This document shows positions 6,300 through 49,099 of a stretch of DNA of 64,000 nucleotides, piece after piece. Position numbers and translations under genes: made by a program. Source of the DNA: Patescibacteria group bacterium. Its GTDB lineage: Bacteria; Patescibacteriota; Saccharimonadia; CAILAD01; JADZBC01. The DNA lies in NCBI GenBank assembly GCA_052034495.1, contig JBPOIL010000003.1:18345-82344 (forward strand), given 5' to 3'. Each line of letters begins with the position of its first letter. Position 1 is the first letter of the stretch. Below the pieces are notes generated by a model. That model did not search any database. It saw only the letters and a list, made by a program, of their open reading frames with translations, and was not told the DNA's origin.

Positions 6300-6845
6300 A
6301 TGGAAGACCGAGATACCAGAATTGCGCGTCAAGCGCACGAAGCTGCCATCCGTTTGGCAGCAGAAGCATTCGTTGCCCTGGCAGCCGGCAAGGTTCCGCC
6401 AAGCTTGGAGTTCTCGGCGGACATCTTGTTCGTCGCCGACCTGGGGCTGAGCGACAAGCCCAGCCGCTTGTTGGCCGAGCAGGGCATCGAACTCGTCGGC
6501 GACCTGGTTCGCCACAGCGAGGACGACCTCCTCGTCATCATCGGCTTTGGGGAGAAGTCGCTCGATGAGGTGAGGGCCAGGCTCGCCGAGCACGAGCTCA
6601 CCCTGAAGGGCTCTGAGCTGCCTGCTCCGACTCCGGTGCAGAACCTGCGCTTCAGTGCTGTTGTGCTTCGGCGCTTCGCCAGGGGAACGTTCAGGCTCGA
6701 CGGTACGTACGTCCCCATCGAGACGGTCGAACAGCTCGTTCGGCTGTGCGCCGATGACCTCCTCACGATCCCCGGTTTCGGCCAGGCCTACCTCAGGCAG
6801 GTCGAACAGGTACTTGCCCGCCACGGCAAGTCCCTGCGCCAGTAG
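6300..6845 (+). CDS. Standalone protein made of two tandem RNA polymerase alpha-subunit C-terminal-domain-like (alpha-CTD) helix-hairpin-helix modules; high-GC islet gene
   Basis: RBS AGGAGAAG precedes the ATG. Both halves (LSDKPSRLLAEQGIELVGDLVRHSEDDLLVIIGFGEKSLDEVRARL and LRFSAVVLRRFARGTFRLDGTYVPIETVEQLVRLCADDLLTIPGFGQAYLRQVEQVL) resemble RpoA CTD (SVRSANCLK...GDLV...ELLK.PNLGKKSL.EI). GC3 is high on the + strand; the overlapping minus ORFs 6234-6824 and 6329-6766 are low-complexity antisense. Confidence 0.55.
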   Translation: MEDRDTRIARQAHEAAIRLAAEAFVALAAGKVPPSLEFSADILFVADLGLSDKPSRLLAEQGIELVGDLVRHSEDDLLVIIGFGEKSLDEVRARLAEHELTLKGSELPAPTPVQNLRFSAVVLRRFARGTFRLDGTYVPIETVEQLVRLCADDLLTIPGFGQAYLRQVEQVLARHGKSLRQ

Positions 6846-6874: not shown

Positions 6875-6904
6875 GATCGCTCCTCCTGGGGCGATCTTTC
6901 GTTT
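6875..6904 (+). terminator. Rho-independent terminator (GATCGC stem, tcctcctgg loop, GCGATC stem, then TTTCGTTT)
   Basis: Hairpin at 6875-6896 followed by a T-rich run, 30 nt after the stop of the 6300-6845 gene. Confidence 0.4.
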
Positions 6905-7763
6905 AAGAGGTCAAAACCCACTGGCCAGCGCCGATGTTCCGAACCTTGCCAGTTATTTCCATTAGGCTCAGCATGCCGGCGATCTTTTCGGCAGGAATGT
7001 CACTCTTTTCTATTAGGTCGTGCGTAGTATGGCTACCCGCATCTATGAGCTCCATGAGTCGCGCCTCTTCTGCAGAATCTGCCCTTCGCTTCTTTGGCTT
7101 TACTAACGTGCTTTGTAGGCCGAGTTCGGACAGTATATCTACTGCGTCTAGTACTGGCTTGGCGCCACATTTGAGTAAGTTATTTGGCCCCGCTGAGCGC
7201 GGGCTCGTGACGTTGCCAGGTACAGCCATGACCATGCGGTTCTCCTGCAGGGCGAAGTTGGCTGTAATAAGCGATCCGCTACTGGCGTTGGCTTCTGTAA
7301 TGACGGTAGCAAGGCTGAGTCCGGCAATTATCCTGTTGCGAGCCGGAAAGTTTTGCTTAAACGGTGTGGTGCCTTCGGGGTATTCACTTATAACGCCGCC
7401 GCCAGAAGCCACTATCGCTTTGAATAAGTGGAAGTTTGACCTGGGCGAAGGTGCGTCTAGGCCGCTCGCTAGAACCGCCACAGTCGCACCGCAAGCATCA
7501 AGCGCAGCCTGATGAGCAATTGCGTCTACCCCGAGTGCCATACCGCTTACTATGCATATACCTGCACGGGCTAGATCGTAGGCCAGCCGGTACGTTATTT
7601 GCTTGCCGTAGTCTGTAATTGCCCTACTCCCCACTATAGCTACCATTGGCAGATCAGGTACGTTGCCGACTACATATAGCTCCTTGGGCGGAGCCGCAAT
7701 ATCGCGCAAAAGAGCAGGATATTTGTTGCTATTGTATCGTATATATTGCATAGGATTATCCAT
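6903..7763 (-). CDS. dprA: DNA processing protein DprA (Smf)
   Basis: 286 aa; Rossmann-like DprA core with VVSGMALGVDAIAHQAALDACGATVAVLASGLD. Confidence 0.85.
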   Translation of the reverse strand: MDNPMQYIRYNSNKYPALLRDIAAPPKELYVVGNVPDLPMVAIVGSRAITDYGKQITYRLAYDLARAGICIVSGMALGVDAIAHQAALDACGATVAVLASGLDAPSPRSNFHLFKAIVASGGGVISEYPEGTTPFKQNFPARNRIIAGLSLATVITEANASSGSLITANFALQENRMVMAVPGNVTSPRSAGPNNLLKCGAKPVLDAVDILSELGLQSTLVKPKKRRADSAEEARLMELIDAGSHTTHDLIEKSDIPAEKIAGMLSLMEITGKVRNIGAGQWVLTS

Positions 7764-8717: not shown

Positions 8718-10054
8718 CGCTCCTCCTTGCGCTTGTGTTTGAACACGATCTTGATTGGCGTGCCATCAAACTCTCCTGCTTCACGCAAGACGTTTTCCAG
8801 GTAGCGCGGGTAGGAAAACTGGATCATATCGGGGTGTGTTGCAAAGATCGTAAACTCAGGTGGTTTTGTGCCTGTTTGGGTAATATAATTGAGCTTAGGG
8901 TGGGTGTTTTTAAGTCCTACCGGTGGCTGTTTTGCAGTGGCTTGACTAAGGAGTTTGTTGAGCTTGGGTGTCGAGATCTGTGTGCTTGAGCTGGCATCAA
9001 TTTTTACAATAAGTTCGTAGAGCTTATCCAGGTTGAGGCCCGTTTCGGCAGAGGTAAATATGAGTGGCGCCCACCATACAAACTGGTACTGCGCACTAAT
9101 GTAGTTAGCCATGCGCTGCATGGTATTGTCTTCTTTGTCCTCGACTGCGTCCCATTTACTGACGACAAGTACAAGCCCTTTACCGGCTTCTTTTACCAGA
9201 CCGGCAATGTTTTGGTCTTGCGACACGCTGTTCTCATTGGCATCAATCAGAACCAGACAAACGTCCGCCCAAGCAATGGCCTTTTTGGTTCGTAAACTCG
9301 AAAAGAATTCGATGCCACGACCAATCTTACCGGCTCTACGTAAGCCTGCCGTATCGGCGAATACCAGCTCTTTGTCACCATGCGCTATGCTGCCGTAGTT
9401 AATGTCTCGCGTGGTGCCGCTAATGTCAGAAACCAGGGCCTTCGGCGTGCCAATGACTTTGTTGAGTAAACTTGATTTGCCTACGTTTGGTCGACCCAAG
9501 ATCGCTACCTTAATGGTATTCTCGTCCTGAGAAATGGTGCTTACATCGGCGGTCTCGAGTTTGCCCGTAATTGCATCGAGCAAGTCTCCGCTACCCTGCC
9601 CGCTGATTGCCGCGAGCGGCATAATGTCATTAATACCCAGGCGCTCGTAGTGATCAGCCAGGCCGCCGCGGTGCGTTTGGTCTACCTTGTTTACAGCCAG
9701 AATAGCTGGCTTCTGGCTCTTAAGGATCTCCTGGGCGACCTTCCGGTCATGCGCGTCAATTGGAACGGTGCCGTCTACGAGCATGACTACCACATCTGCT
9801 AATGCGATTGCTTCATCGATTTTGTCCTGCGCTCTACGTACGAGCTCGTCATCGCTCTTGGCGAGTCCGGCGCTATCAAGCAAGCGGAAGTGCCTGCCCT
9901 GCCACTCTACGTCGCCCTCTACGAGGTCGCGGGTAGTGCCGGCCAGGTCTGCTACGATAGCCTGATTGGTGTTTGTTAGTCGGTTGAACAACGTTGATTT
10001 ACCAACGTTTGGCTGGCCGATGATGAGTACGGTTGGTTGTTTGTCTTGTGTCAT
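8714..10054 (-). CDS. der: Ribosome-associated GTPase Der (EngA)
   Basis: 446 aa with two tandem GTPase domains (GQPNVGKSTLFN and GRPNVGKSSLLN) and a KH-like C-terminus. Confidence 0.9.
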   Translation of the reverse strand: MTQDKQPTVLIIGQPNVGKSTLFNRLTNTNQAIVADLAGTTRDLVEGDVEWQGRHFRLLDSAGLAKSDDELVRRAQDKIDEAIALADVVVMLVDGTVPIDAHDRKVAQEILKSQKPAILAVNKVDQTHRGGLADHYERLGINDIMPLAAISGQGSGDLLDAITGKLETADVSTISQDENTIKVAILGRPNVGKSSLLNKVIGTPKALVSDISGTTRDINYGSIAHGDKELVFADTAGLRRAGKIGRGIEFFSSLRTKKAIAWADVCLVLIDANENSVSQDQNIAGLVKEAGKGLVLVVSKWDAVEDKEDNTMQRMANYISAQYQFVWWAPLIFTSAETGLNLDKLYELIVKIDASSSTQISTPKLNKLLSQATAKQPPVGLKNTHPKLNYITQTGTKPPEFTIFATHPDMIQFSYPRYLENVLREAGEFDGTPIKIVFKHKRKEER

Positions 10055-17949: not shown

Positions 17950-18993
17950 ATGCAAAAAACTGAGCAAGGTCCACAAAAGGACCCTAATTTTAAGAAGCTG
18001 CCGATGACTGTGCTCACCGGCTTTTTAGGCGCGGGCAAAACCACGCTGCTCAACTACATCCTTACTAACAACCAAGGCCTTAACATCGGCGTGGTGGTAA
18101 ACGACTATGGCGACATTAACGTTGATTCCGACCTCATTGCCGACAAAACTGACGCTAAGCTGGAGCTCACCAACGGCTGCATTTGCTGCAGTTTAGAAAC
18201 GCTCGATTTGCAAGAAGCGATTGGTCAGTTTGCCTACCAAGGTAGCCCGATCGACTACATCATTATCGAAGCGAGTGGCTTAGCAGAGCCTAAGGACCTG
18301 GCCCTAACGCTCAAAGACACCATCGGCCAACGTGTGTACCTCGATAGCATCGTTACGGTGCTTGATGCCGAGAACTTAGAAAAGAACGCCCAAGAGCACG
18401 GTACGGCGAGCGAGCAGATCGAGTTCTGCGACTTTGTGATTATTAATAAGGTCGACTTGGTGCCAACAGCTAAGGTTAAGGACATCCGTTCGTTAATCGC
18501 CAGCATTAACCCTAAGGCCCGCATATTGGAAGCTACTAAGGGCGAAGTCGAGATCCACTTACTGCTCGACCAAGATGTATTTGCTAAGCGCGAGCCAAAG
18601 TCTGAAGATGACCACGAAGAGCACACAGATCACGCCGATCACGTGCATTCCCATTACCAAACGTTCAGTTTCACGAGCGACAAGCCACTCCACCCAATGA
18701 GGTTCCAAGAGTTTGTGAACAAGCAGATTCCAACGAGTATTTACCGCGCCAAAGGCTTCGTTGATTTGGGCACCAAGGGCCACGAGCGCAAATACATCTT
18801 CCAATTGGTTGGTACACGAGCCGAAATTACCTGGGGCAACTGGGGCGGCGACGCGCCACAAACACGCCTCGTATTCATTGGTCAGGATGCCGATCAAGCA
18901 AAGATCATGGACGCATTGCAGAAGTGCGTGGACGAAGCACCCGACGAGCCACTTGATGGCATCGAAGTTCAGCTGCCCAAGAAGGCCAGCTAA
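17950..18993 (+). CDS. COG0523-family GTPase / zinc metallochaperone (CobW/ZigA/YeiR-like)
   Basis: P-loop GFLGAGKTTLLN, CxCC metal motif (GCICCSL) and a His-rich linker DDHEEHTDHADHVHSH. The ATG at 17950 has the RBS AAGGTG; the track start at 17836 overlaps the islet. Confidence 0.8.
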   Translation: MQKTEQGPQKDPNFKKLPMTVLTGFLGAGKTTLLNYILTNNQGLNIGVVVNDYGDINVDSDLIADKTDAKLELTNGCICCSLETLDLQEAIGQFAYQGSPIDYIIIEASGLAEPKDLALTLKDTIGQRVYLDSIVTVLDAENLEKNAQEHGTASEQIEFCDFVIINKVDLVPTAKVKDIRSLIASINPKARILEATKGEVEIHLLLDQDVFAKREPKSEDDHEEHTDHADHVHSHYQTFSFTSDKPLHPMRFQEFVNKQIPTSIYRAKGFVDLGTKGHERKYIFQLVGTRAEITWGNWGGDAPQTRLVFIGQDADQAKIMDALQKCVDEAPDEPLDGIEVQLPKKAS

Positions 18994-21106: not shown

Positions 21107-21574
21107 CTACTTGCTGTCCTCGTCTGGGACGTCGGGGGCGGGTGCCCAGACGATGATCACGTGGTCCGTGCAGTGCCTGCTGGTGACCACGTCGAGGGCC
21201 GCCGGTGCGGCACGCCAGGCGACCCTGTAGCCGTCCTGCACGAGCATCTGCTCCACGAAGTCCTGCTCGCCCGAGGACAGGCGCACAGTCACTGTGACCT
21301 TGTGATCCGGGTCCTGAGCGGCGATGATCTCCTGCCGGATGGCGTCGGTGATCTTGGCGAACTCCAGCTCCAGGCTGTTGGGCTCGTGGGCGGCCAGCCA
21401 GCGCGCGCGGTAGGCGCTTGGCAGGTCGGACGCGAAGTAGCTGAGTCGAGCGTCGCTGGGCACCTCGCGCAGAGCGGATGCCATGTCTTCCGCGAGGTTC
21501 ACACCCCCTGCTTCTCTCACCAGCTGCTGCCAGGCTTCGTTGCTCTCCCACACTGGGGCTTCGTCATCGTGCAT
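21107..21574 (-). CDS. High-GC islet gene: 155-aa hypothetical acidic protein
   Basis: ATG at 21572-21574 with the RBS AAGGAG seven nt upstream. The + strand ORFs (21071-21589) and the minus ORF 21033-21551 are Arg/Gly-rich antisense artefacts. Confidence 0.45.
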   Translation of the reverse strand: MHDDEAPVWESNEAWQQLVREAGGVNLAEDMASALREVPSDARLSYFASDLPSAYRARWLAAHEPNSLELEFAKITDAIRQEIIAAQDPDHKVTVTVRLSSGEQDFVEQMLVQDGYRVAWRAAPAALDVVTSRHCTDHVIIVWAPAPDVPDEDSK

Positions 21575-22068
21575 GTGCACACTCCTTGATCGGTTGTAGG
21601 CCAAACCCCATTATGCCTTGCTGCGAATAGGCCCGCAAGCATGATCTTTGTAGCTCTCCCCCGTGACATTCGAATATCCTGGACGTGGTTCGGAGTACTC
21701 AGAACAGAACGCTCGAGGATTGTCTGAGTCTGGCCCCAGGCGAGTCCCGTAGAGCACTTCTGTTTGAGTACGGAGAAGCACCGCCAAGAGATGAGCCCCA
21801 TGTCGCAAATACTTTTGACTACTTTTGGTATGTTCAAAAGTAGTAGGTATTGATTGTTTAGATTAAGTTACTTGTTCTTTTGAAAGGGCCAAAAGAACCT
21901 AAAGCCCTTCCGGCCATTGTCCTCGCATCAAGTGGTTCATTCAAGAAGAAATATATGGATTGATCTGCGGGGTTCGCTTGGATGCCAAGCTCTGCAATCC
22001 TCACTCATCCTTATATTCTTCTTTCACTCACGTCTTAAGCTGCGGGTGGCCGGGGCGGCAGTAAAGGC

Positions 22069-26230: not shown

Positions 26231-26665
26231 TCACGCCATGTACTCGGCGAGCACGCGCTCGTGCTCCCGGCGGTAGTACTCATCGCTGCCTGGGGCAACC
26301 ATGAGACTCCCGGGTGAACGCCAGATCTCCCTGGCGGTCAGGCCGATCACGATCGGAGATGCGAACCCTGCGTAGAAGCAGAGCGTGATCATCCAGCCGA
26401 AGGGCCAGACGTCACTCCGCATCTGCGCGAGCACCTGCTGGCACTCCTCCATCCCGAAGCGAACGACGGGGTTCAGGGTACCGATGGCGATGGCGACGGT
26501 GCCGATGGTCAGGTACGCCCAGCGCCAGATGTGGCGGGACTTGTTGCTGGCCAGGGCGCCGAGGATCATCCGGGCCCCGACGATCCCGACCGCGACTGCG
26601 GCGAGGAAGAGGGCGATGAACACGCCATCCTGGACCTTGCTGGAAACTTCTTGGACTGCGAGCAT
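26231..26665 (-). CDS. High-GC islet gene: 144-aa polytopic membrane protein
   Basis: ATG at 26663-26665 with the RBS GCAGGAGGAGCAGGA; about four hydrophobic helices; high GC3. Confidence 0.5.
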   Translation of the reverse strand: MLAVQEVSSKVQDGVFIALFLAAVAVGIVGARMILGALASNKSRHIWRWAYLTIGTVAIAIGTLNPVVRFGMEECQQVLAQMRSDVWPFGWMITLCFYAGFASPIVIGLTAREIWRSPGSLMVAPGSDEYYRREHERVLAEYMA

Positions 26666-26794
26666 TCCTGCTCCTCCTGCGTGTTGTGTGAGTGGGTCAA
26701 TGAACTCAGCACATATTAACATGCTTATGCTAAATTGTCAAGCCAATGATTGCTACATCTCTTTACCCTAAATTTTCGAGAATTGCCATGCAGT

Positions 26795-32386: not shown

Positions 32387-32971
32387 ATGGCAAAGGAAAA
32401 GAAGAAGTCCAAGAAGTCCAAGAAGGGCAAGAGCAAGAAGGGTTCGGGCAAGCTGCCCAAGAAGAGCCCCAAGGTGACGAAGCTCAAGGCTCCGGACAAG
32501 AAGGGTCCTGACAAGAAGTCCAAAAAGGGCAAGAAGAAGGCCGCCGCCGAGGTGCCGACCGGAGACATCGACCTCTCCTCCGTGATGATCACGGAGCTGG
32601 TTCGGAATCGCATCTGCAGCGAGCTCAAGCTCACTCCCCAAGAGACTGGCTACATCACCAAGGTGATCACTTCGGTCTGGGTGTCTGTTGACATCGTCCA
32701 GCAGGAGCCGATCGGCAACAGCGACAGCCCGCTCATGCCCGCACGGACGGGAGAGAACCGGGCGGTCGACCTGGGGACGCTGGCCAAGGTCGTCTCGTTC
32801 CCGGAACTCCAGCGCGAGGTGCGAGGCGTCCTTCGCCAGGCGCGCCGGGCGTCCTTCGTTGGGCCCAAGGGTCTGGCCGTCCTCGAGCGCTTCGTGGACA
32901 AGGCCAAGAAGATCATCATCTACCAGAGCCCCCGTCCAGACCATGACGGAGATGGCGGCGGTTCCGAGTAG
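32387..32971 (+). CDS. High-GC islet gene: 194-aa protein with a histone-H1-like lysine-rich N-terminus and a globular C-terminal domain
   Basis: RBS AAAGGAG; the N-terminal ~55 aa are KKSKKSKKGKSKKG repeats, followed by a non-repetitive domain. Confidence 0.55.
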   Translation: MAKEKKKSKKSKKGKSKKGSGKLPKKSPKVTKLKAPDKKGPDKKSKKGKKKAAAEVPTGDIDLSSVMITELVRNRICSELKLTPQETGYITKVITSVWVSVDIVQQEPIGNSDSPLMPARTGENRAVDLGTLAKVVSFPELQREVRGVLRQARRASFVGPKGLAVLERFVDKAKKIIIYQSPRPDHDGDGGGSE

Positions 32972-36341: not shown

Positions 36342-36698
36342 CTACGCCGTTCTGGTGAGCGGCTTGGGGAGCTGGCCCGAGTGCCCACGATCGCGCATGG
36401 TCTCGACCACGTTGGGCTGTTCGTAGACGTAGGGCATGACGTAGACCTTGAGGTGCAGCCTTGCGGTACCGCGGGGGCTGAGCTGGTTGGTCATCCCGGT
36501 CAGCGGAGCTTGGGCATCTTCGGCGAGAAGCTCACCGAAGAAGTGCTGCAAGGAGCGGACCTCCAGGTCCTTCAGGACCTTCATGGCTACGTCCGACGGA
36601 GGACGCTTGCTGTCGGGGTGATCCAGGTAGCTGCTCGCGATCTGGGCGATCAGTGGCGCGATCCCAAGGATCGCCGGTTCATCTGTGTACGTAGGCAT
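36342..36698 (-). CDS. High-GC islet gene: 118-aa hypothetical protein
   Basis: Minus-strand frame has GC3 of about 80%, whereas the overlapping + ORF 36330-36725 is Gly/Val/Arg-rich antisense-like sequence. A GC hairpin plus T-run follows on the minus strand at about 36285-36305. Confidence 0.45.
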   Translation of the reverse strand: MPTYTDEPAILGIAPLIAQIASSYLDHPDSKRPPSDVAMKVLKDLEVRSLQHFFGELLAEDAQAPLTGMTNQLSPRGTARLHLKVYVMPYVYEQPNVVETMRDRGHSGQLPKPLTRTA

Positions 36699-36851: not shown

Positions 36852-37301
36852 CTACTTCAGTACCAGTAGGACCGGTGGCTTGGACTCGAGTGCCAAGTCG
36901 GGAACGAGTGCCTGTAGATGCGTCCTGCCGTGCCGAACCACACGCTTGAAACCCTTGCTGGCAAAGAGCTGCTGATTGCACAGCCCATGCGCCGACTCTT
37001 TGATCGGGTTCGTGATGTTCGGCCTCATGAACACCTCGAAGATCTTCTCGGTGCGTGTTGCTTCAGCCTCATCAAGCATTCGCAAGCGTCCCATCCCGCA
37101 GTACAGAGGCTCCGAACGGGCATCGTGCACTACCTGGAGCAAGATTCGTACCACCAAGGTGGCATCGCGCCGACTGCACTTCACTTTTGCCTCGCGGCAC
37201 TCTCCTCGGATTGCCTTTGCAGCCTCCGGGAACAACTTGGGGTCGAATGTGCCGGTAGTCTCTCTGTATCTCTTCACCAAGATCTCCTCGGTCTCGCTCA
37301 C
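36852..37301 (-). CDS. High-GC islet gene: 149-aa hypothetical protein (GTG start)
   Basis: GTG at 37299-37301 (MSETEEILVKRY...); elevated GC3; the + strand ORFs 36918-37310 and 36976-37314 were rejected. Confidence 0.4.
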   Translation of the reverse strand: MSETEEILVKRYRETTGTFDPKLFPEAAKAIRGECREAKVKCSRRDATLVVRILLQVVHDARSEPLYCGMGRLRMLDEAEATRTEKIFEVFMRPNITNPIKESAHGLCNQQLFASKGFKRVVRHGRTHLQALVPDLALESKPPVLLVLK

Positions 37302-40107: not shown

Positions 40108-40524
40108 ATGACCATCACCGAACCGGACGTCGCAACCGCGGCGACCATGCCCACCCCGTACCCCGACACCATCAGCCCCCGACCCACCATCGACCAGATC
40201 CGCAGCGCGATCATGAAGCAGACCGGCTGCAGCAAGCGTCGGGCTCGTCGCTTCATCGCCTTCCTGCGCGACCAGATCTCCTGCGCACGCAGCGAGGATG
40301 GCTACGGGCCGGTCCACCTCACGCAGGAGGAGATCGACGAGTTCCACCCGATGCTCGAGCTGGTCATGCCCGACGACACGGCGTCCACGCCGGGTTCCGC
40401 TCACGACCTGATCGAGCGCGGCCTGCTCAGCGCTCACCGCGGCGAGCTGTCCATCACCCACACCAAGGGCGGGCCGACGGCCGAGGACTGCGTCACCGTC
40501 GTCGAGGTCCACAAGGTCGGCTGA
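40108..40524 (+). CDS. High-GC islet gene: 138-aa hypothetical protein
   Basis: RBS GGAGGTGG nine nt before the ATG; GC3 above 90%; followed by a strong terminator. The minus-strand ORF 39973-40590 is an Arg/Gly/Asp-rich antisense artefact. Confidence 0.5.
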   Translation: MTITEPDVATAATMPTPYPDTISPRPTIDQIRSAIMKQTGCSKRRARRFIAFLRDQISCARSEDGYGPVHLTQEEIDEFHPMLELVMPDDTASTPGSAHDLIERGLLSAHRGELSITHTKGGPTAEDCVTVVEVHKVG

Positions 40525-41594: not shown

Positions 41595-42071
41595 TTAGCC
41601 GATCTTGATGCCTGGCTCAGTTTGTGAGTCAGGTTTTTTCGAGTCTTTCGATGCCTTGAGCTCTAGGCCGACTTCTTGCATATCCTCCACTGCAGCTTCG
41701 TGGTATTTTTCCTGGTTGCGTCCATAATGCCTTGTGGCCTTGCTGAGCTCTCTGTTGTAGTCTTGTTGCCTTTCCGTAACCAGCTCAGCTGCAGCTCTGG
41801 CATCTTGCTCCATCCTGGGCTCTAGTTTTGCCTTTGATTCGGCCTCTGCTTTGAGCGCTATTTGCTGTTGCCGGGGGTCTTTGAAGTTGGTCATAGCTGA
41901 CTGTACTCTGGCTTCTTGGCGAGCATGGATATGGTCATGTGACTGTTCGGTTGCTACTTGCCGCGCCTGCGCCGCGTCCAACTTTGCACTTGTAAATCTG
42001 TGCATACCATAAAGCATTCTCGCTTTGCGCTGGAATCGACTTCTCCTCCACTCCTGAAATCGCTTGAACAT
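41595..42071 (-). CDS. Hypothetical coiled-coil protein (158 aa, Q/E/K/R-rich)
   Basis: ORF in backbone GC with no recognised motif. Confidence 0.4.
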   Translation of the reverse strand: MFKRFQEWRRSRFQRKARMLYGMHRFTSAKLDAAQARQVATEQSHDHIHARQEARVQSAMTNFKDPRQQQIALKAEAESKAKLEPRMEQDARAAAELVTERQQDYNRELSKATRHYGRNQEKYHEAAVEDMQEVGLELKASKDSKKPDSQTEPGIKIG

Positions 42072-42113
42072 AGTTTGGGCCCTCCGTTTGTCGTAATTAT
42101 AGCATTAAATGAG

Positions 42114-42149
42114 GAAGGCCCGTTCTGCGCTGAAACAGAACGGGCCTTC
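42114..42149 (-). terminator. Strong hairpin terminator (GAAGGCCCGTTCTG, loop, CAGAACGGGCCTTC)
   Basis: 14-bp perfect stem located 23 nt downstream of the islet gene stop at 42172; a T-rich tract follows on the minus strand. Confidence 0.5.
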
Positions 42150-42171
42150 GAGGTTGTACTGCTCGACTTCG

Positions 42172-42558
42172 CTACCGGGGCTCGAACATCACCCCGAGGC
42201 TCCAGTGGCAGAACCACTTGCCCATGACCAGGTCCTTGCTGTGGACGAACGGTCGATCCGCGGGAGCAAGCTGGTTGAGCGCAGCGTGTGCGGTTGCCGG
42301 CTTGGCCACAGCGCCATCGGGCATGATGCGCGTGAGCACCGGGTGGATCAGCAGCATCTGCGGGATGGTCATGCGACCATGGCAGCCGCGCTTGGTGCGA
42401 TCTTCGGCGAAGAACAGGGTCAGCCGGGCGCGAACCCAGCCGCACTGGCCGTCGCGCTTGATCAGGCTGATGATCTCGGCACGTGAGTAGGCGTGCGACT
42501 GCACGGCGCGGGTATGAGCGGCTGTGACCGCCGTTTGGCGATCCAGGATTGCGGTCAA
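42172..42558 (-). CDS. High-GC islet gene: 129-aa hypothetical protein (TTG start)
   Basis: TTG at 42556-42558 preceded by GCAGGAGGT and six nt (MTAILDRQTAVTAAH...). The track's upstream TTG at 42582 has no spacer after its putative RBS. Confidence 0.45.
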   Translation of the reverse strand: MTAILDRQTAVTAAHTRAVQSHAYSRAEIISLIKRDGQCGWVRARLTLFFAEDRTKRGCHGRMTIPQMLLIHPVLTRIMPDGAVAKPATAHAALNQLAPADRPFVHSKDLVMGKWFCHWSLGVMFEPR

Positions 42559-42637
42559 GGTGTTACCTCCTGCAAATACCAACCCCCTCTGGGTTAGTGT
42601 GTTTTATACTACTCCTATACGGCGGGCAGTCAAGGTG

Positions 42638-42943
42638 TTAGTCGCGCGAACGTGGCATGAGTGCGGAGAGTGCCCAGCCAGCCAGAACATATAGACCTAT
42701 GGCAATGGGTATAACGATATTGAAGCCACTTGGCAGGGCTTTGGGCAGGCTAATGTACTGATCGAGCCAGGAAACTGGAATGAGCAGTACGGTGCTCCAG
42801 CTGTAAATTAGGCTTGTAAGTTTGCCTTCCGGGCTACGGCCAAATAGGTCGTAAGCAAAGCGTAGGAGCAACGTGGCGACAGAGCTGGCCACAAAGATCC
42901 AGATGATGCCACCGAGTATTCCGCTATTTGATCGTCGATTCAT
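42638..42943 (-). CDS. Small membrane protein (101 aa, two or three TM helices)
   Basis: Internal ATG at 42941-42943 (MNRRSNSGILGGIIWIFVASS...). The 5' extension of the track ORF runs into the high-GC islet on the wrong strand and is out-of-frame-like sequence. Confidence 0.4.
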   Translation of the reverse strand: MNRRSNSGILGGIIWIFVASSVATLLLRFAYDLFGRSPEGKLTSLIYSWSTVLLIPVSWLDQYISLPKALPSGFNIVIPIAIGLYVLAGWALSALMPRSRD

Positions 42944-42960
42944 AGTACTAGTATAGCAGT

Positions 42961-42990
42961 AAATCAAAACACCCTCGCATTGGAGGATGT
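42961..42990 (-). terminator. Intrinsic terminator for the islet gene 43053-43328 (ACATCCTC, loop, GAGGGTGT, then TTTTGATTT on the minus strand)
   Basis: 8-bp stem with one mismatch and a T-rich tail; also marks the left edge of the islet at 42.96-45.42 kb. Confidence 0.4.
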
Positions 42991-43052
42991 TTTGTAATAA
43001 TTGCTTGGGTTGTGGTGCGGTGGGGTCCGAAGACTCCACCGCACCTCGCACC

Positions 43053-43328
43053 TCAGGCCGCTCGCGACTCGTCCCATGGCATATCCATGGGTGTGTCGGG
43101 GTCGGGTTCTGGCGAGTAGTCGTGCTGTTCCTTGCCGAGCCTCCAGGAGGCCCAGCTGAAGAACGCGCAGCAGGCTGCGCAGAACACGAATGCGAGCAGG
43201 CCCGTGAGCGTGCCGACCATCGCCCCGCCGTTGCCACTGGCATCGACGGTGTTGCGGTCCTCGCTGAAGAGCAGGACGAAGGCCATGAGGCCGAAGCCAA
43301 CTGCTGCGATACGTGCTGCTTGTGCCAT
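43053..43328 (-). CDS. High-GC islet gene: 91-aa two-TM membrane protein
   Basis: ATG at 43326-43328 with a strong RBS AAGGAGGTG; MAQAARIAAVGFGLMAFVLLF...LTGLLAFVFCAACCAFF. Confidence 0.5.
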   Translation of the reverse strand: MAQAARIAAVGFGLMAFVLLFSEDRNTVDASGNGGAMVGTLTGLLAFVFCAACCAFFSWASWRLGKEQHDYSPEPDPDTPMDMPWDESRAA

Positions 43329-43543
43329 GCGGCACCTCCTTGTTTGGTGCGGGTTTGGAGCCCGCGACGACTTGCCGGCGGACACCGAACTTGTATATTC
43401 TAGCATAAGCATAAGCATTTGTCAATATATCTGGCAACTGTGATGTCCTGGTTGTGCTTGTTATTCTTAGCACTGGAAGCTATAACTAAATCACAGTACG
43501 CAATCGGCGGCTGGAAGGTACCTTCGATCACATAGGAGTAGCC

Positions 43544-44233
43544 ATGGAGCTGACAAGCATGGAGAAAAGACGGCGGGCTTGGGCCGCAGAGCAGGACCCA
43601 CCACTGGTCACAGTGCAACAGGTGGCCGAGATGCTGGGTCACCAGCGCGGTACGTACGTGCGGCGGATCATGGCACATTACGAGGTCCCTCATCTGCTCT
43701 CTGACTCCAGGGACGCGGATTTCCGAGAGGGCGACGGCTACTATCCATTGCTGGAGGCTCGAGCCGCAGTGGGTAAGTACTTGGTCGATAGGCCACGTAT
43801 GCCCGGTACCCGAACCGCTGGTCCGAAGCCGGCAAGTGCGCTTACCCGCCTGGGTGGCGTGACTGTGCCGTTGTCGGCTCCGCACGGTTGGACCCTCGAT
43901 CAGCTCAAAATCTGCTGGAAGGATTCCCCAGACATGCGGGGCGTCGTTGAGCAGATCTACGAGCGTTGTCCGTCCTTTACGCAACTGACCTTCGAGGAGG
44001 CCAAGGCCTTGGTTGTGGACTTGGCGCAACCAGACATGGCCCCGCAGCTGATGCATCCGCCCTACGAGCGAAGCGACTTCATGCGGGCCGCGAGAGAGCT
44101 GACTCGCGGCAAGCCGGATGAGCTCGCGCAGCTGACGAGGGTGTTGGAGGGCAAGTTCCACCTGCGCAACTTCTGCAGGATCAACCCGGGTCCGGCCGTG
44201 GCCGTCGTCCTCGAGCTCCTGCGCAGCAAGTAG
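43544..44233 (+). CDS. High-GC islet gene: 229-aa protein with an N-terminal HTH (excisionase/AlpA-like)
   Basis: RBS AGGAG; LVTVQQVAEMLGHQRGTYVRRIMA helix-turn-helix; terminator at 44266-44299. Confidence 0.5.
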   Translation: MELTSMEKRRRAWAAEQDPPLVTVQQVAEMLGHQRGTYVRRIMAHYEVPHLLSDSRDADFREGDGYYPLLEARAAVGKYLVDRPRMPGTRTAGPKPASALTRLGGVTVPLSAPHGWTLDQLKICWKDSPDMRGVVEQIYERCPSFTQLTFEEAKALVVDLAQPDMAPQLMHPPYERSDFMRAARELTRGKPDELAQLTRVLEGKFHLRNFCRINPGPAVAVVLELLRSK

Positions 44234-44302
44234 CGCCGACAACCGAATAAGGGAAGTTCTTCACTCCCCTGGCGAATCACCGCCAGGGGGTTCGTTTTTA
44301 CA

Positions 44303-44338
44303 CAAACAAAAGCACCTCCCCGAAGGCAGGTGCTTTTG
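44303..44338. terminator. Bidirectional terminator (AAAA, GCACCT, ccccgaaggc loop, AGGTGC, then TTTT)
   Basis: Flanked by an A-run and a T-run; sits between the convergent genes 43544-44233 (+) and 44367-44858 (-). Confidence 0.45.
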
Positions 44339-44366
44339 CACTGCCCCCGAAGAGGTGTGGTGCCGG

Positions 44367-44858
44367 CTAGGCCAGCTGACCGACGAGAACTCTCGATGGC
44401 TCTTCGTCGAAGTGGTACTTGGCATCGGCCACGATGAACCCGAGCTCTCGAGTCAGAAAGCTCCCGATCTTGTGCTGGCCCGGATTCGGGATCAGCTCTT
44501 GCTGGTATGCCTCGTCCATGGTGGCCAAGAACGCTTCTCGCAGCAAGTTCCTCATGTTCGGCTGCATGCCGTCCACGAAGAACCGAGCCGCTGCATGTGG
44601 TGCCAGTTCAGGACTGCTCGCGTCGATCCGGCCAAGGATCTTCAGCAGGATGTCGATGACACCCGATGTGTAGCTCTCCCAGGTCTTCTCGCGGAAGTTC
44701 TCCGTGATGATGCGGTACGCCGCCGCCTTGTTGTCCGGACTCATGCCAGACTTGATCACCCTCAGCCCAAGGGCAAGGGCGTTCCAGTCAATGGACAGTT
44801 CAGGCGCCTTTGCGGGCGCCATGGTTGCTGTGGTCACAATGATCCTTTCAGGAATCAT
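44367..44858 (-). CDS. High-GC islet gene: ~155-163-aa hypothetical protein
   Basis: High GC3 on the minus strand. Start ambiguous between the track ATG at 44858 and an ATG about 12 codons downstream. Confidence 0.45.
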   Translation of the reverse strand: MIPERIIVTTATMAPAKAPELSIDWNALALGLRVIKSGMSPDNKAAAYRIITENFREKTWESYTSGVIDILLKILGRIDASSPELAPHAAARFFVDGMQPNMRNLLREAFLATMDEAYQQELIPNPGQHKIGSFLTRELGFIVADAKYHFDEEPSRVLVGQLA

Positions 44859-44984
44859 AGTCGGATTCGAACCGTATTATTATAACCTAATATTTCGACA
44901 ATTACAACTTAGTGTTGGGTTAAAACGAAAACCATCCCCCCGAAGGATGGATAATTTCCGTCCTCGGGAGGATGTTGGCCGGCC

Positions 44985-45369
44985 CCCTACACGTAGGTAC
45001 CGGAGAACTCGCCGGCGGCGTCGAGCAGCGCGGCTGCCAGGTTGCCCAACGCGAGCTTGGCGACCCACTCGTTGGCCTCACTGGTGTGGCCCAGGACCTC
45101 TCGGTCCATGACCTTCTGTAGGGCGTCGACCCCATGATGCCAGCGATGATCTCGGTCGGCATGTCGTGACCTGCCATGTCGATCTCGTAGCGCTGCAGGT
45201 CGTTCATGACGTTCGCCTCCTCCCCTTCCGGGAAGGATGCCACGAGCTCTGCCCTGACCAACAGGCCGCTGCCCTTGATCTCGAAGATCTTGATCAGCGG
45301 CTGGTGGTGCTCGCAGAAGTGCCCTTCGATGTGGACCTGGAATTCGGGTACTGCGGTTGCATCTGCCAT
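44985..45369 (-). pseudogene. High-GC islet gene (~127 aa) interrupted by a frameshift at a G4 homopolymer
   Basis: ATG at 45367-45369 with RBS AGGAGAGACAG. The frame reads MADATAVPEFQVHIEGHFCEHHQPLIKIFEIKGSG...EIIAGIMG with high GC3. At GGGG (45130-45133 on the coding strand) the high-GC3, protein-like continuation (VDALQKVMDREVLGHTSEANEWVAKLALGNLAAALLDAAGEFSGTYV*) moves to another frame, while the original frame becomes P/S/R/W-rich. One extra G would restore the reading frame. Confidence 0.45.
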
Positions 45370-45444
45370 CTGTCTCTCCTGGATTGATTCGGGTGTGGCG
45401 AATGGGATTACAAGTATACGAGGATAATTAGAATATGTCAATAC

Positions 45445-45466
45445 TTACAAACAGAAATTTGTAAGC
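45445..45466. promoter_or_regulatory. Perfect 8-bp inverted repeat CTTACAAA, 6-nt spacer, TTTGTAAG: operator-like site or islet boundary
   Basis: Located at the low-GC edge of the high-GC islet, about 30 nt upstream of an extended -10 (TGGTGTATAAT) for the HIT gene. Confidence 0.3.
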
Positions 45467-45491
45467 GTCTAGGGGCTCCGTCTGCTAGCTG

Positions 45492-45923
45492 GTGTATAAT
45501 AATTCCATGTTTCACTATCCCAAAACTCGCAAAGAGTATAAAAAGCACTTGCGACCCGCGTCTTGCCCATTCTGCAATGTAGAAGAACTCAAGCAGCGCA
45601 AGTTTATTGAGACCGAGCACGCCTATATCGTCCCGAATAAAACCTCATACGACTTATGGGAGGCTCGTGATGTTAGGGACCACCTGCTGGTACTTCCTAA
45701 AAGGCATGTACTTAAGCTTTCAGAGTTAACTGCCGAAGAGGCTGCAGACTTGATGAAGATTTTCGCTGAATACGAGGCGAAGGGCTACAACGTCTACGCT
45801 CGTGGCGTGAACAGCACCATGCGTTCCGTGCCCCATCAACATACTCATCTAATTAAGACGAGCCCTAAAGAGCATCATGGTACGGTGTTTATACGCAAGC
45901 CATACATGTTCTTCAAGTTTTAA
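45492..45923 (+). CDS. HIT (histidine triad) family hydrolase
   Basis: HQHTHLI is the HxHxHxx triad; 143 aa. Confidence 0.75.
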   Translation: MYNNSMFHYPKTRKEYKKHLRPASCPFCNVEELKQRKFIETEHAYIVPNKTSYDLWEARDVRDHLLVLPKRHVLKLSELTAEEAADLMKIFAEYEAKGYNVYARGVNSTMRSVPHQHTHLIKTSPKEHHGTVFIRKPYMFFKF

Positions 45924-46111
45924 CACAGAAGGCTCCACTCAGATTTAAAATAATTGCTGGTGATCCCGACGGGATTACTATGAGTATAACTTTCTCAGGT
46001 ACTCGAAATTCATTCCTGCGCGCCTTCGTAGTTATCGTCCCCACTTCGTAGGCCAGTGTCGTTGTCGCGTCAGCCATGAAAAAAGCCCCAGGCAAGCTGA
46101 GGCGCTTTTCA

Positions 46112-46187
46112 TGGTGATCCCGGTGGGATTCGAACCCACGATCTTCTGGATGAGAACCAGATATCCTAACCACTAGACGACGGGACC
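46112..46187 (-). tRNA. tRNA-Glu (anticodon CUC) with encoded CCA
   Basis: The reverse complement GGTCCCGTCGTCTAGTGGTTAGGATATCTGGTTCTCATCCAGAAGATCGTGGGTTCGAATCCCACCGGGATCACCA folds as a cloverleaf; anticodon loop UUCUCAU. The track ORF 45913-46194 overlapping it is spurious. Confidence 0.85.
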
Positions 46188-46245
46188 TCGTCACAAAAAT
46201 AACCCGATAATCTTAGCATTTTTCCATATAAACTTCAATTCTGGC

Positions 46246-46275
46246 TTGACGTACCGCCTACCAATTTCGTATTAT
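46246..46275 (+). promoter_or_regulatory. Promoter upstream of nrdA (TTGACG, 17-18 nt spacer, TATTAT)
   Basis: -35 at 46246-46251 and -10 at about 46270-46275; a second TTGACG (46331-36) / TATAGT (46354-59) pair overlaps the NrdR-box-like palindrome. Confidence 0.35.
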
Positions 46276-46345
46276 GTTCGTAAGTAATGTGTGTGCAAAG
46301 AAAATCTACAGAAAAACACGTGTGGTGGTGTTGACGACAGCTTAA

Positions 46346-46361
46346 CCACTATATATAGTGT
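46346..46361. promoter_or_regulatory. NrdR-box-like 16-bp palindrome (CCACTATATATAGTGT) upstream of nrdAB
   Basis: 14/16 match to the NrdR operator consensus acaCwAtATaTwGtgt, with a perfect CACTATAT/ATATAGTG palindrome overlapping the -10 of the proximal promoter, 36 nt before the nrdA ATG. Confidence 0.45.
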
Positions 46362-46396
46362 TTATCATAACAATACAAACACTAAGGAGGGTGAGG

Positions 46397-49099
46397 ATGA
46401 GTTTTTCGCAAATAAAAAAGCGCAATGGTGCCGTAGTAGATTTTGATGCCACCAGGATAGAAGTTGCCATCGGTAAAGCGAGCCAAGCAGCCGGCGGCGA
46501 GGTACCAAGCGAAGACGTAGTTCTGCTCGTAGAGTCCGTGGTATCAAACCTAGAAACCATGTTTGCCGAAGGCACACCCGACGTTGAAGCCATCCAAGAC
46601 CTCGTAGAACAAGAACTTATGCGTAGTGGCCATTATCAAACCGCTAGAACGTACATTGTATACCGAGATACGCGCCAAGCTGCGCGCGAAGCTGCAGAGC
46701 GGGACAGCGCGAACCGTCTTGAACACAGCGAGCTACGCATTATTGGCAAGGATGGCAGCGAAGATACTTTTAGCTACGCTCGGCTTATAAAGGATCTACT
46801 AGTTGCCGCAGATGGCCTAGACAAGGACGTGGACGTCGATGAGCTAGCTCAAGCCGTTAAGACTAACCTCTATGACGGGATGAGCACCGCAGAGCTTGAG
46901 GATGCTATGATCATGGCCACAAAAGCCTACATAGAACGGGACAAGGCTTACTCACTACTGGCCTCTCGCTTACTCATGCGCAAACTGTACCGTGAAGTCC
47001 TAACTATAAAGACGGGGCAAGATCCGATTGAGCAATACCGCGCTCAATTCCCCGACTTTGTTAAGAATGCCGTGGCGACCAAGCGTCTAGACAAGAGAAT
47101 GCTTGATTTTGACATGGACAAGCTGACTGCAGCGCTCGACCTAGAACGCGACAACTTGCTTGATTACATGGGTTTGCACGTCCTGTACGGCAACTACTTT
47201 CTGCGAACTGCTGAGCGTAAAGACGTATTGGAGCTGCCACAGTACTTCTGGATGCGCGTGGCTATGGGGATGGCGATTTTGGAAAAGAAAGACAAGACCG
47301 ACTGGGCAATCAAATTCTACGATGTCCTCTCTAGCTTGCGCTATGTAACGTCTAGCCCTACCCTGTTCAACTCTGGCACGAACTTCTCCCAGCTAAGCTC
47401 GTGTTTTCTCAACACAGTCGAGGACGATTTAAAGCATATCTATAAGGTGTATCTGGATACCGCGTTGATGTCTAAGTTCTCCGGCGGGATTGCAACTGAC
47501 TGGACAAACATTCGTGCTACGGGGGCACAGATTAAGACTGTAGATGTAGCCAGCCAGGGCGTGGTGCCGTTCCTGAAGATCGCTAATGATTCTACTGTGG
47601 CTATTGCTCGTAGTGGACGCCGCATTGGGGCTACTGCAGTCTACTTGGAATCATGGCATTTGGATATCGAGGACTTCCTAGAATTGCGAAAGAACACTGG
47701 TGACGAACGCCGCAGAACCCACGACATAAACACTGCCAATTGGATCCCTGACTTGTTTATGAAACGAGTAGAAAGCGATGGCGAATGGACTCTCTTCTCG
47801 CCTGACGAAACTCCGGACTTGCACGACCTCTACGGCAAAGCATTCGAAAAGCGCTATATTCAGTACGAAAAGATGGCGGACAAGGGCGAAGTAAAACTCT
47901 TTAAACGCGTACCGGCGGGGAGTCTGTGGCGTAAAATGCTCTCAATGCTCTTTGAAACTGGCCACCCTTGGATTACGTTCAAAGATCCAAGTAACTTGCG
48001 ATCACCGCAGGACCATGTGGGTGTGGTCCATAATTCAAACCTTTGCACGGAGATCACCTTAAATAACTCCAGAGATGAGACTGCCGTGTGCAACCTAGGC
48101 TCAGTCAACCTGGCGCGGCACATGAAGGGCGGCAAGCTGGACGGAGAATTGATCAAAGAAACCGTAGCGAGCGCCGTGAGAATGCTCGATAACGTAATCG
48201 ACATTTGCTACTACGTAACCAAGGAGACAGAGCGCGCCAATATGAACCACCGTCCAGTTGGACTGGGTATCATGGGGCATCAAGACGCCCTCTATATGCA
48301 GGATATAGACTTTGCCTCAGACGCTGCAGTGGAGTTCGCCGATGAAAGCATGGAGCTTATTTCCTACTACGCCATCCTGGCTTCGAGCGAGCTGGCCAAG
48401 GAACGCGGAGCTTACAAGACCTTCAAGGGCTCAAAATGGGATCGTAACATCTTCCCTGTTGACACTCTGGACATCCTTGAGCGAGAGCGCGGAATTAAAC
48501 TTGATATACCCCGCAAAGGCAAATTGGACTGGAAGCCAGTACGTGATGCGGTAAAGAAGCATGGCATGCGCAATTCGAACGTCATGGCCATAGCCCCAAC
48601 TGCTTCTATTGCCAACGTAGCTGGCTGCACGCCATGCATCGAGCCAATCTACAAGAACCTCTATGCAAAGTCGAACATGAGCGGCGACTTCACAGTACTA
48701 AACGGTTATTTGATCGACGATCTGAAGAAGCTCGGCCTGTGGGACCAGACTATGCTCAACAAGATTAAATACTATGACGGTAGTATCCAGCAGATCGAAG
48801 AAATCCCAGCCACTATCCGTGCAAAGTATAAAGAGGTTTTTGAAATCGAACCCGAGTGGCTCATTAAGGCCGCCGCGTACCGAGGCAAATGGATAGATCA
48901 GAGCCAGTCGCTCAACATCTATATGAGAGGTGTATCGGGCAAGAAGCTTTCGGACGCCTATGTATATGCTTGGCGTATGGGTCTTAAGACCACCTACTAC
49001 TTGCGAACTCTTGCAGCATCTCAGGTGGAAAAATCTACCGTTAACACGACCGAGTTCGGCGCGACTCATAAACGTGATTTTGCAGAAAAAACAAACTAA
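46397..49099 (+). CDS. nrdA: Ribonucleoside-diphosphate reductase alpha subunit (class I, with N-terminal ATP-cone)
   Basis: RBS AAGGAGGGTGAGG before the ATG at 46397; ATP-cone MSFSQIKKRNGAVVDFDATRIEVAIGKA; about 900 aa RNR large-subunit core; followed by nrdB. Confidence 0.9.
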   Translation: MSFSQIKKRNGAVVDFDATRIEVAIGKASQAAGGEVPSEDVVLLVESVVSNLETMFAEGTPDVEAIQDLVEQELMRSGHYQTARTYIVYRDTRQAAREAAERDSANRLEHSELRIIGKDGSEDTFSYARLIKDLLVAADGLDKDVDVDELAQAVKTNLYDGMSTAELEDAMIMATKAYIERDKAYSLLASRLLMRKLYREVLTIKTGQDPIEQYRAQFPDFVKNAVATKRLDKRMLDFDMDKLTAALDLERDNLLDYMGLHVLYGNYFLRTAERKDVLELPQYFWMRVAMGMAILEKKDKTDWAIKFYDVLSSLRYVTSSPTLFNSGTNFSQLSSCFLNTVEDDLKHIYKVYLDTALMSKFSGGIATDWTNIRATGAQIKTVDVASQGVVPFLKIANDSTVAIARSGRRIGATAVYLESWHLDIEDFLELRKNTGDERRRTHDINTANWIPDLFMKRVESDGEWTLFSPDETPDLHDLYGKAFEKRYIQYEKMADKGEVKLFKRVPAGSLWRKMLSMLFETGHPWITFKDPSNLRSPQDHVGVVHNSNLCTEITLNNSRDETAVCNLGSVNLARHMKGGKLDGELIKETVASAVRMLDNVIDICYYVTKETERANMNHRPVGLGIMGHQDALYMQDIDFASDAAVEFADESMELISYYAILASSELAKERGAYKTFKGSKWDRNIFPVDTLDILERERGIKLDIPRKGKLDWKPVRDAVKKHGMRNSNVMAIAPTASIANVAGCTPCIEPIYKNLYAKSNMSGDFTVLNGYLIDDLKKLGLWDQTMLNKIKYYDGSIQQIEEIPATIRAKYKEVFEIEPEWLIKAAAYRGKWIDQSQSLNIYMRGVSGKKLSDAYVYAWRMGLKTTYYLRTLAASQVEKSTVNTTEFGATHKRDFAEKTN

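Follow-up and report, generated by a model that had tools for sequence, protein, structure and literature searches.

Introduction

In Neisseria, minimal mobile elements (MMEs) are defined in PMC3082526, which cites Snyder et al. 2007, as carrying no mobility machinery of their own and being exchanged by homologous recombination. Here we describe a locus that invites this comparison, an islet of four high-GC genes at 42960-45445 of a 64,000-nt stretch of a Candidatus Saccharibacteria (TM7) chromosome (positions 18,345 to 82,344 of the forward strand of contig JBPOIL010000003.1, assembly GCA_052034495.1; hereafter the window). Measured against that account, the islet resembles the MMEs in being bounded by conserved genes, in holding different whole-gene cassettes in different strains and in lacking mobility genes. 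A naturally competent organism in which exchange proceeds through homologous recombination would be a further likeness, which for the islet we infer. The islet differs in belonging to Patescibacteria, in comprising several adjacent sites rather than one, in breakpoints that also fall within the block, at conserved promoter and terminator linkers, and in that its cassettes are GC-rich orphans, not AT-rich or functionally annotated genes.

Two other kinds of system share fewer features with this locus. With tRNA-linked islands, prophage remnants and actinomycete elements that encode Xis or AlpA, it has in common an atypical composition, a nearby tRNA, a probable winged-helix protein and a small membrane protein. 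It differs from them in having no integrase, no bracketing att repeats and no similarity to phages or plasmids, in the backbone gene that stands before the tRNA, in the size of the helix-turn-helix (HTH) candidate (229 aa, with an extra domain) and in a block position that is syntenic across species. Like integron cassettes, the islet consists of single-gene units exchanged at a fixed chromosomal location. However, it has neither IntI nor attC-like repeats, no family of imperfect inverted repeats recurs at the cassette ends, and its units carry their own promoter and terminator and lie in mixed orientations. The islet is a new example, from Patescibacteria, of a known kind, the non-autonomous variable gene block, with an unusual compositional signature and one fresh pseudogene.

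Saccharibacteria have tiny genomes and live as obligate epibionts of Actinobacteria, and the bulk of their lineage-specific genes lack an explanation. Taken alone, the islet is an ordinary accessory-gene block with a fresh pseudogene. Its wider interest is that, within one clade, the part of the genome that varies between strains would be made up of small orphan genes of distinct composition, swapped as promoter-plus-gene units without mobile-element machinery, as natural competence predicts. If the pattern holds genome-wide, GC content at third codon positions (GC3) would be a simple handle on a pool of accessory genes, probably ones for host interaction. The locus also poses the testable question of the source of GC-rich genes without homologues.

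Results and Discussion

Gene content and composition

The islet has a GC content of 58.6% (59.6% in its core, 43010-45370) against 48.6-49% in its flanks and ~49-50% in the backbone of the window. The identity of the chromosome is illustrated by the ribonucleotide reductase (RNR, 46358-49099), which is 92% identical to three MAG (metagenome-assembled genome) proteins labelled "uncultured Candidatus Saccharibacteria". On its left the islet is neighboured by PEMT and a gene for a 101-aa membrane protein (memb101), and on its right by HIT, tRNA-Glu and RNR. A preliminary description of this DNA, made from the letters alone, had singled it out as the largest high-GC, multi-gene islet, with a small membrane protein and a pair of convergent genes separated by a bidirectional terminator. 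All of these features stood up: the islet is the largest among about a dozen high-GC islets in the window, memb91 has two hydrophobic segments (residues 1-23 and 34-62 by hydropathy), and p229 (plus strand) and p163 (minus strand) converge on hairpins at 44265-44290 and 44308-44339. The genes and their predicted control elements are listed below.

43014..43045: GC-rich hairpin (inverted repeat I19) at the islet's left edge, just 3' of the memb91 stop; 14-nt arms, 93% complementary, 4-nt loop
43053..43328, minus strand: memb91, 91 aa, with two transmembrane helices by prediction and a tail that is acidic and Pro-rich
43397..43425, minus strand: memb91 promoter-like site, TTGACA-17-TAGAAT, with TG before the -10 box; 11/12 consensus matches
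43544..44233, plus strand: p229, 229-aa orphan, lowest pN/pS in the annotated frame
44262..44366: convergent terminator module; HP1 (44265-44290) with T-run for p229, HP2 (44308-44339) for p163, and a third small hairpin that abuts the p163 stop
44367..44837, minus strand: p163, 156-aa orphan, all-helical by prediction; GTG start at 44837 behind AAAGGA, as suggested by the sequence and by 156-aa homologues
44879..44907, minus strand: p163 promoter-like site, TTGTAA-17-TATAAT; 10/12 consensus matches
44932..44950, minus strand: p127 intrinsic terminator, CCATCCTTCGGGGGGATGG then TTTTCGTTTT; kept in strains L001, L007, L012 and L014
44987..45369, minus strand: p127, 127-aa orphan with a -1 frameshift at codon 79-80
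45413..45441, minus strand: p127 promoter-like site, TTGACA-17-TATACT; 11/12 consensus matches, kept in L001, L007 and L012-14

All four genes are predicted to be monocistronic, each with its own sigma-70-like promoter site and hairpin terminator. The scan returned 12 promoter-like sites vs 3.1 expected; three of the islet promoters are near consensus and that of p229 is weaker. The memb91 ATG is preceded at 7 nt by an AAGGAGG Shine-Dalgarno sequence, and the p163 open reading frame (ORF) extends upstream to an ATG at 44858, which would give 163 aa.

The GC excess is confined to the four coding sequences (CDSs), the shifts coinciding with their start and stop codons. Four of the five intergenic spacers have just 43-50% GC, and the intergenic promoters are AT-rich like the genome itself. 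GC3 is 0.78 in memb91, 0.76 in p229, 0.76-0.78 in p163 (as 156 or 163 aa) and 0.86 in repaired p127, compared with 0.46-0.59 in backbone genes. Moreover, GC at first codon positions (GC1) and amino-acid composition are also shifted.

Probable exchange of genes between strains

L001, L002, L007, L008, L009, L012 and L019 all have the block, or its p229-p163 core, on the downstream side of PEMT, and it continues up to HIT/RNR where the contig reaches; it is absent in L010 and L011. The same position is kept at all the syntenic Saccharibacteria loci that were recovered, even in species whose backbone synonymous sites are saturated, and therefore the block is not a recent insertion. It is also high-GC in these relatives.

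In a 60-nt identity profile against L007, memb91 is 95-100% identical, p229 falls to about 50% (36% at the amino-acid level), the terminator returns to 100%, p163 is at 68-93%, p127 at 63-82% and HIT at 88-95%. Against L012 the pattern is another: an unrelated 112/135-aa gene takes the place of memb91, identity is 90-100% from p229 to p127, homology stops at 45441 and three other genes stand in place of HIT. memb91 shows 93-95% identity in L001/L007 and is absent in L008, whilst p127 is absent in L008 and L009. The flanks are well conserved in L007, L008 and L012 where present (PEMT 82-99%, memb101 87-97%, HIT and RNR 92-97%). The two allele classes of p229 are just 36% identical and each has its own promoter. 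The A-type cassette brings its promoter and 5' untranslated region with it, its left edge lying just beyond the memb91 -35 box, which marks the breakpoint, and its right edge at the first terminator hairpin. Breakpoints sit in promoter and terminator linkers.

These comparisons are best accounted for, and in our view probably explained, by regarding the islet as a plasticity-zone block of four monocistronic accessory genes in one Saccharibacteria lineage, which has no mobility machinery of its own and whose promoter-plus-CDS units are exchanged by homologous recombination. Whole units would be replaced, lost or gained between strains, with recombination anchored in conserved backbone genes and in intergenic linkers, namely the promoter -35 boxes and the terminator module. 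Exchange would most probably follow natural transformation, the route being transformation plus RecA/DprA recombination. Natural competence has been demonstrated experimentally in Saccharibacteria (PMC10633639), and dprA is present in the window at 6903-7763.

Abrupt shifts in GC are also what an assembly or binning chimera would produce in metagenome-derived sequence, by joining high-GC DNA of another organism to a Saccharibacteria contig. However, the islet junctions recur in at least eight independent assemblies (Logan, JGI, ENA, NCBI), the GC shifts match start and stop codons, and the islet genes carry the genome's own promoter type. Together these observations effectively refute a chimera, to which we attach next to no probability.

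The backbone to the left is itself mosaic. Between 38460 and 41576, DUF2779 is 100% identical to L007 and has a synonymous divergence (dS) of 1.6 vs L012, whilst PEMT is nearly identical to L012 and has a dS of 0.42 vs L007. This indicates that homologous recombination between co-occurring strains is frequent over the region as a whole. Next to it, at 41595-42600, a Lys/Glu-rich 158-aa gene and a high-GC 136-aa gene are found in the window, L012 and L009 and are absent in L001 and L007. In the latter two PEMT directly abuts the gene for the 101-aa membrane protein, another indel difference in the same zone.

Each strain also has different genes between p127/p163 and tRNA-Glu/RNR. These are a 261-aa gene in L007 (12376-13161, GC3 0.85), 216-aa and 215-aa orphans plus a CN-hydrolase in L012 (2608-4104), and a 342-aa gene of ordinary GC in L008 (5761-6789).

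Coding evidence and homologues

The annotated frames have the lowest pN/pS, 0.15 for p229 and 0.37 for p163, compared with 1.1 or more in shadow frames, of which the long antisense ORFs give 1.1-1.3 (1.3 for the one opposite p229). Ratios of nonsynonymous to synonymous divergence (dN/dS) lie between 0.12 and 0.53 for the islet genes (memb91 0.27; p163 0.12-0.34; p127 0.33-0.53, with 0.33 vs L012) vs 0.01-0.10 for backbone genes. These values show the islet genes to be genuine coding genes that evolve several-fold faster than the backbone. memb91, p163 and p127 would be accessory genes; that they evolve fast and vary between strains suggests a part in conflict or in interaction with the host.

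Searches of Pfam, PHROGs, NCBIfam and PADLOC gave no usable match for the four islet proteins or for two neighbouring islet proteins, so that the profile searches proposed in the preliminary description returned no family. Its suggested comparison with actinophages gave no sign of kinship: tblastn had no match among 50,697 phage records and 72,556 plasmid records, and three IMG/VR scans had none either. PDB sequence searches with profiles of p229, p163 and p127 returned nothing significant. Host genes hidden in other frames were also sought, and none of ten alternative-frame ORFs in the islet has a Pfam match. Among 5.8 billion proteins there are 2 homologue clusters for p229, 6 for p163 and 2 for p127, and homologues of the islet genes were found solely at syntenic Saccharibacteria loci. 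A p163 scan of genome contigs and a p163-profile scan of metagenomes found nothing. An HMMER scan of 1.84 billion representatives with the p163-family profile recovered its own cluster and four weak matches, of which P0017 alone extends across the protein (E 2e-4). By hhalign it is a true, if distant, relative of p163 (94.6%, 30% identity), and it adjoins PEMT in another Saccharibacteria genome; its gene has a GC3 of 0.76.

P0017 bears on a different history for the islet, in which its genes are vertically inherited, lineage-specific and fast-diverging, with neither exchange nor foreign origin, and each has its own equilibrium at high GC3, maintained through selection on codons or amino acids or through GC-biased gene conversion. 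The age of the p163 family in Saccharibacteria, with the distant member still beside PEMT and still GC-rich, argues for a maintained equilibrium. The GC excess ends at CDS boundaries, no donor homologues were found, and p163 has a dS vs L008 (0.76) below that of the backbone (1.9-3.4), as expected for constrained synonymous sites. Nonetheless, gradual divergence cannot produce the sharp-edged fall of p229 to about 50% nucleotide identity between flanks of 95-100%. Moreover, backbones that are nearly identical differ in whether a whole gene is there, is missing or has been replaced at a given site, and the shift in GC1 and amino-acid composition also speaks against this history. We therefore consider purely vertical descent unlikely.

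The p229 protein and the right-hand boundary

The preliminary description had read the islet as a mobile-element remnant with an AlpA/Xis-like HTH gene and a perfect inverted repeat exactly at its right junction, 650 bp from tRNA-Glu. The tRNA, a tRNA-Glu(CTC), is where it was placed and is the only Rfam match over 42500-46500. The features concerned are as follows.

45444..45465: perfect 8-bp inverted repeat, CTTACAAA-N6-TTTGTAAG, between the divergent p127 and HIT promoters and directly upstream of the p127 -35 box
46112-46187, minus strand: tRNA-Glu(CTC)

The AlpA/Xis likeness stands on structure prediction. The AlphaFold2 (AF2) model of p229 has a predicted local distance difference test score (pLDDT) of 64.5 overall, with N-terminal blocks at 68-84, and residues 21-82 are modelled as a b-a-a...b-a unit (E21-23, H24-31, H37-45, E66-68, H69-82). 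Foldseek against BFVD gave no significant match; the top matches are mostly phage proteins of HTH, MerR-like or AlpA type (E 0.02-0.6, target-normalised TM-score 0.45-0.66). Against the PDB the best match is a KH domain (E 0.43), with a P2 DNA-binding protein at 0.63, the RdfS excisionase at 1.2 and RacA at 1.9. Profiles lend no support: Pfam has no match to full-length p229 at E <= 0.1, and five N-terminal domains of the p229 family have no match to an HTH family at E <= 10, the sole match in that scan being of one member to an unrelated phage baseplate family (E = 0.13). The predicted N-terminal fold of p229 has many weak Foldseek matches to phage proteins with MerR-like, HTH_17 or Phage_AlpA domains. 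p229 differs from such domains in having no profile match even at E = 10, with fold E-values that are not significant and a model of moderate confidence. Going by the model and these weak matches, the N-terminus is probably a winged helix of MerR/excisionase type, and p229 may be a DNA-binding regulator acting through it. The C-terminal helical domain carries an RCPSF...EAKA motif that is invariant in the homologue alignment.

The inverted repeat is present at 45444-45465, and the homology between the window and L012-14 ends beside it, immediately upstream of the p127 -35 box (45441). The att or operator role proposed for it fared less well. Perfect 8-bp inverted repeats with a spacer of 0-10 number 22 in the window vs 11 +/- 4.6 in shuffles, a frequency that we take to be at chance level. 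The paired arms, for which a search for further copies had been suggested, occur nowhere else in the window. In L007/L002 two mismatches interrupt one arm, and L008 lacks the repeat; it is not a conserved operator or att site.

Downstream of the tRNA there is a partial copy of its 3' end, TGGTGATCCCGACGGGATT, at 45958-45976 (17/19 matches, 0 expected by chance). It is the sole copy, lies 154 bp downstream of the tRNA and just past the HIT stop, and is outside the islet. L009 has its own copy (9558-9575), which co-varies with its tRNA, whilst there is none in L007, L008, L010 or L012. The genes that come after the tRNA vary from strain to strain. The copy looks like an att scar of a lost integrative element. 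If it is one, it shows that the tRNA flank has seen integration, with the scar beyond HIT and not delimiting the islet. The 150-nt stretch between the tRNA and the partial copy folds unremarkably (z = -1.95).

All of this bears on whether the islet is a decayed integrative element, a prophage or an actinomycete-type element that entered near tRNA-Glu, lost its integrase and left behind cargo, the gene of a small membrane protein and one like those of excisionases. Such an origin would suit the GC-rich, foreign-looking composition, the weak likeness of the p229 N-terminus to MerR-like, AlpA or excisionase HTH proteins (many of them from actinophages), the tRNA-Glu 650 bp away with its apparent trace of past integration, and the one homology breakpoint that abuts the inverted repeat. 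However, no integrase, transposase, recombinase or other mobility domain was found in six frames of the islet (Pfam, PHROGs, NCBIfam). No direct repeats bracket it, and the tRNA-end copy is on the far side of HIT, a backbone gene that stands between islet and tRNA. Neither phages, plasmids nor IMG/VR contigs show similarity, p229 has 229 aa and is not a 60-80-aa Xis, and the intergenic promoters have the AT-rich composition of the genome. Moreover, the block is syntenic in species with saturated backbone dS, and similar high-GC orphans sit singly at many sites, which one insertion could not explain. What survives of the mobile-element proposal is that the block is accessory, strain-variable and of foreign-looking composition; an integrative origin we regard as improbable.

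Source of the high GC

The islet genes are not alone in their composition. At least eight further ORFs in the window have a GC3 of 0.72-0.91; they are scattered singly between backbone genes and nearly all are orphans. Where strains can be compared, the variable positions are occupied by high-GC genes. The CDS-limited high GC places the islet genes in a gene pool that is distinct in composition. The shifted GC1 and GC3 would be accounted for by a foreign donor of high GC, such as the actinobacterial host, but no donor homologue of the islet genes was found in protein collections and no known domains were found in alternative frames. Against simple un-ameliorated foreign DNA are the GC3 of the distant p163 orthologue, still 0.76, and the p163 dS, lower than that of the backbone. 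Polarised synonymous changes are balanced in the backbone (115:115 weak-to-strong vs strong-to-weak), whilst in the islet some triplets give 3:18 and one gives 15:7, counts that are few and parsimony-biased in GC-rich sequence. The pool may come from a high-GC donor or may be kept at a high-GC equilibrium.

A bolder proposal is that there is a genome-wide pool of exchangeable orphan cassettes with CDS-confined high GC and near-consensus promoters, encoding the epibiont's fast-evolving repertoire for host interaction or conflict. Their GC would reflect either the continual making of new genes out of DNA taken up from the high-GC actinobacterial host or GC-biased conversion at transformation hot spots. 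We hold this to be unlikely. The literature searched contains no description of high-GC islands or host-derived genes of such a pattern in Saccharibacteria.

Several points weigh against the exchange of promoter-plus-CDS units by homologous recombination as set out above. Recombination after transformation is read from mosaics of metagenome assemblies and is indirect. The roles suggested for the four proteins are tentative, and the winged-helix call depends on a model with a pLDDT of 64 and on Foldseek matches at E 0.02-0.6. The lineages recovered were few, and metagenome scans, with a HIT query, added just one distant locus to them. The conserved pairing of p229 and p163 might mean a functional module and not independent cassettes. 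Lastly, the exchange model leaves GC-rich genes with linkers that are not GC-rich unexplained, and the polarised synonymous changes in the islet are too few and too parsimony-biased to help.

Frameshift in p127

The frameshift in p127 lies in a short G tract.

45130..45133, minus strand: G4 tract (CCCC on the plus strand); G5 in the closest strains by nucleotide alignment with L012, L013 and L014

The closest strain, assembled three times independently as L012, L013 and L014, has ATGGGGGTC at the tract, where the window has ATGGGGTC; the corresponding gene-strand readings are ATCATGGGGGTCGAC and ATCATGGGGTCGAC, respectively. As anticipated in the preliminary description, one added G restores a 127-aa ORF of high GC3 (0.84 before the tract and 0.90 after it), which is 94% identical to intact P0013 and has no further lesion. 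As it stands, the gene reads through to 44920 and yields a 149-aa product. This product, P0014, is on record from two sources: the 83-kb source contig at NCBI, from which the p229 product is recorded as well, and Logan run SRR34217545, whose contig is 100% identical to the window over 11.9 kb and may be from the same population. With no damage elsewhere in the ORF, the frameshift would be very recent, or else an error; if real, it would be a very recent inactivation of p127.

A further possibility is that the tract is a phase-variation switch turning p127 on and off. The sole lesion is indeed a one-base change in a G homopolymer, G5 in close strains vs G4 here, in an ORF that is otherwise intact. 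However, tracts of contingency loci typically have roughly 7 or more bases, and one of 4-5 bases is much shorter. L001 and L007 use GGGGAAT, which codes the same p127 residues, and so no G5 is needed. Moreover, a single G4 genotype was seen, its two records being the identical ones above. A switch at this tract is therefore very unlikely.

Terminator module and p163

The terminator module is ~93-100% identical in the window, L007, L012, L008 and L009, whereas the flanking CDSs diverge more. In L008 the HP1 module (about 55 nt) is duplicated on either side of p163 (4975-4994 and 5653-5672). Rfam gives no match to the module, which could serve as an anchor for recombination or be an RNA element that has escaped recognition. 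We also considered its stem as a DNA-uptake or repeated element and rejected this, as it occurs once in the window. The AF2 model of p163, from which its all-helical character is taken, has a pLDDT of 45 and is too poor to use.

Other high-GC genes and neighbouring features

High-GC3 ORFs outside the islet include the following, among others.

21107-21604: high-GC3 ORF
26231-26722: high-GC3 ORF
32387-32971: high-GC3 ORF
36342-36698: high-GC3 ORF
36852-37301: high-GC3 ORF
40108-40524: high-GC3 ORF
42172-42582: high-GC3 ORF

Several of them sit behind a promoter of tATTGACAtat type, and those at 40108, 42172 and 36852 are weak mutual paralogues (26-29% identity).

To the right of the islet, HIT apparently starts at an ATG at 45507, 6 nt after a conserved -10 box, GTGTATAAT (window 45490-45510). 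The motif is kept in L007 and L008, and the arrangement suggests that the HIT mRNA may be leaderless or near-leaderless.

At 6300-6845 on the plus strand, a 181-aa stand-alone protein (GC3 0.79) combines an RNA polymerase alpha C-terminal domain (E 2e-16) with a helix-hairpin-helix domain. Its gene occupies a GC islet of its own between topA (3784-6087) and dprA.

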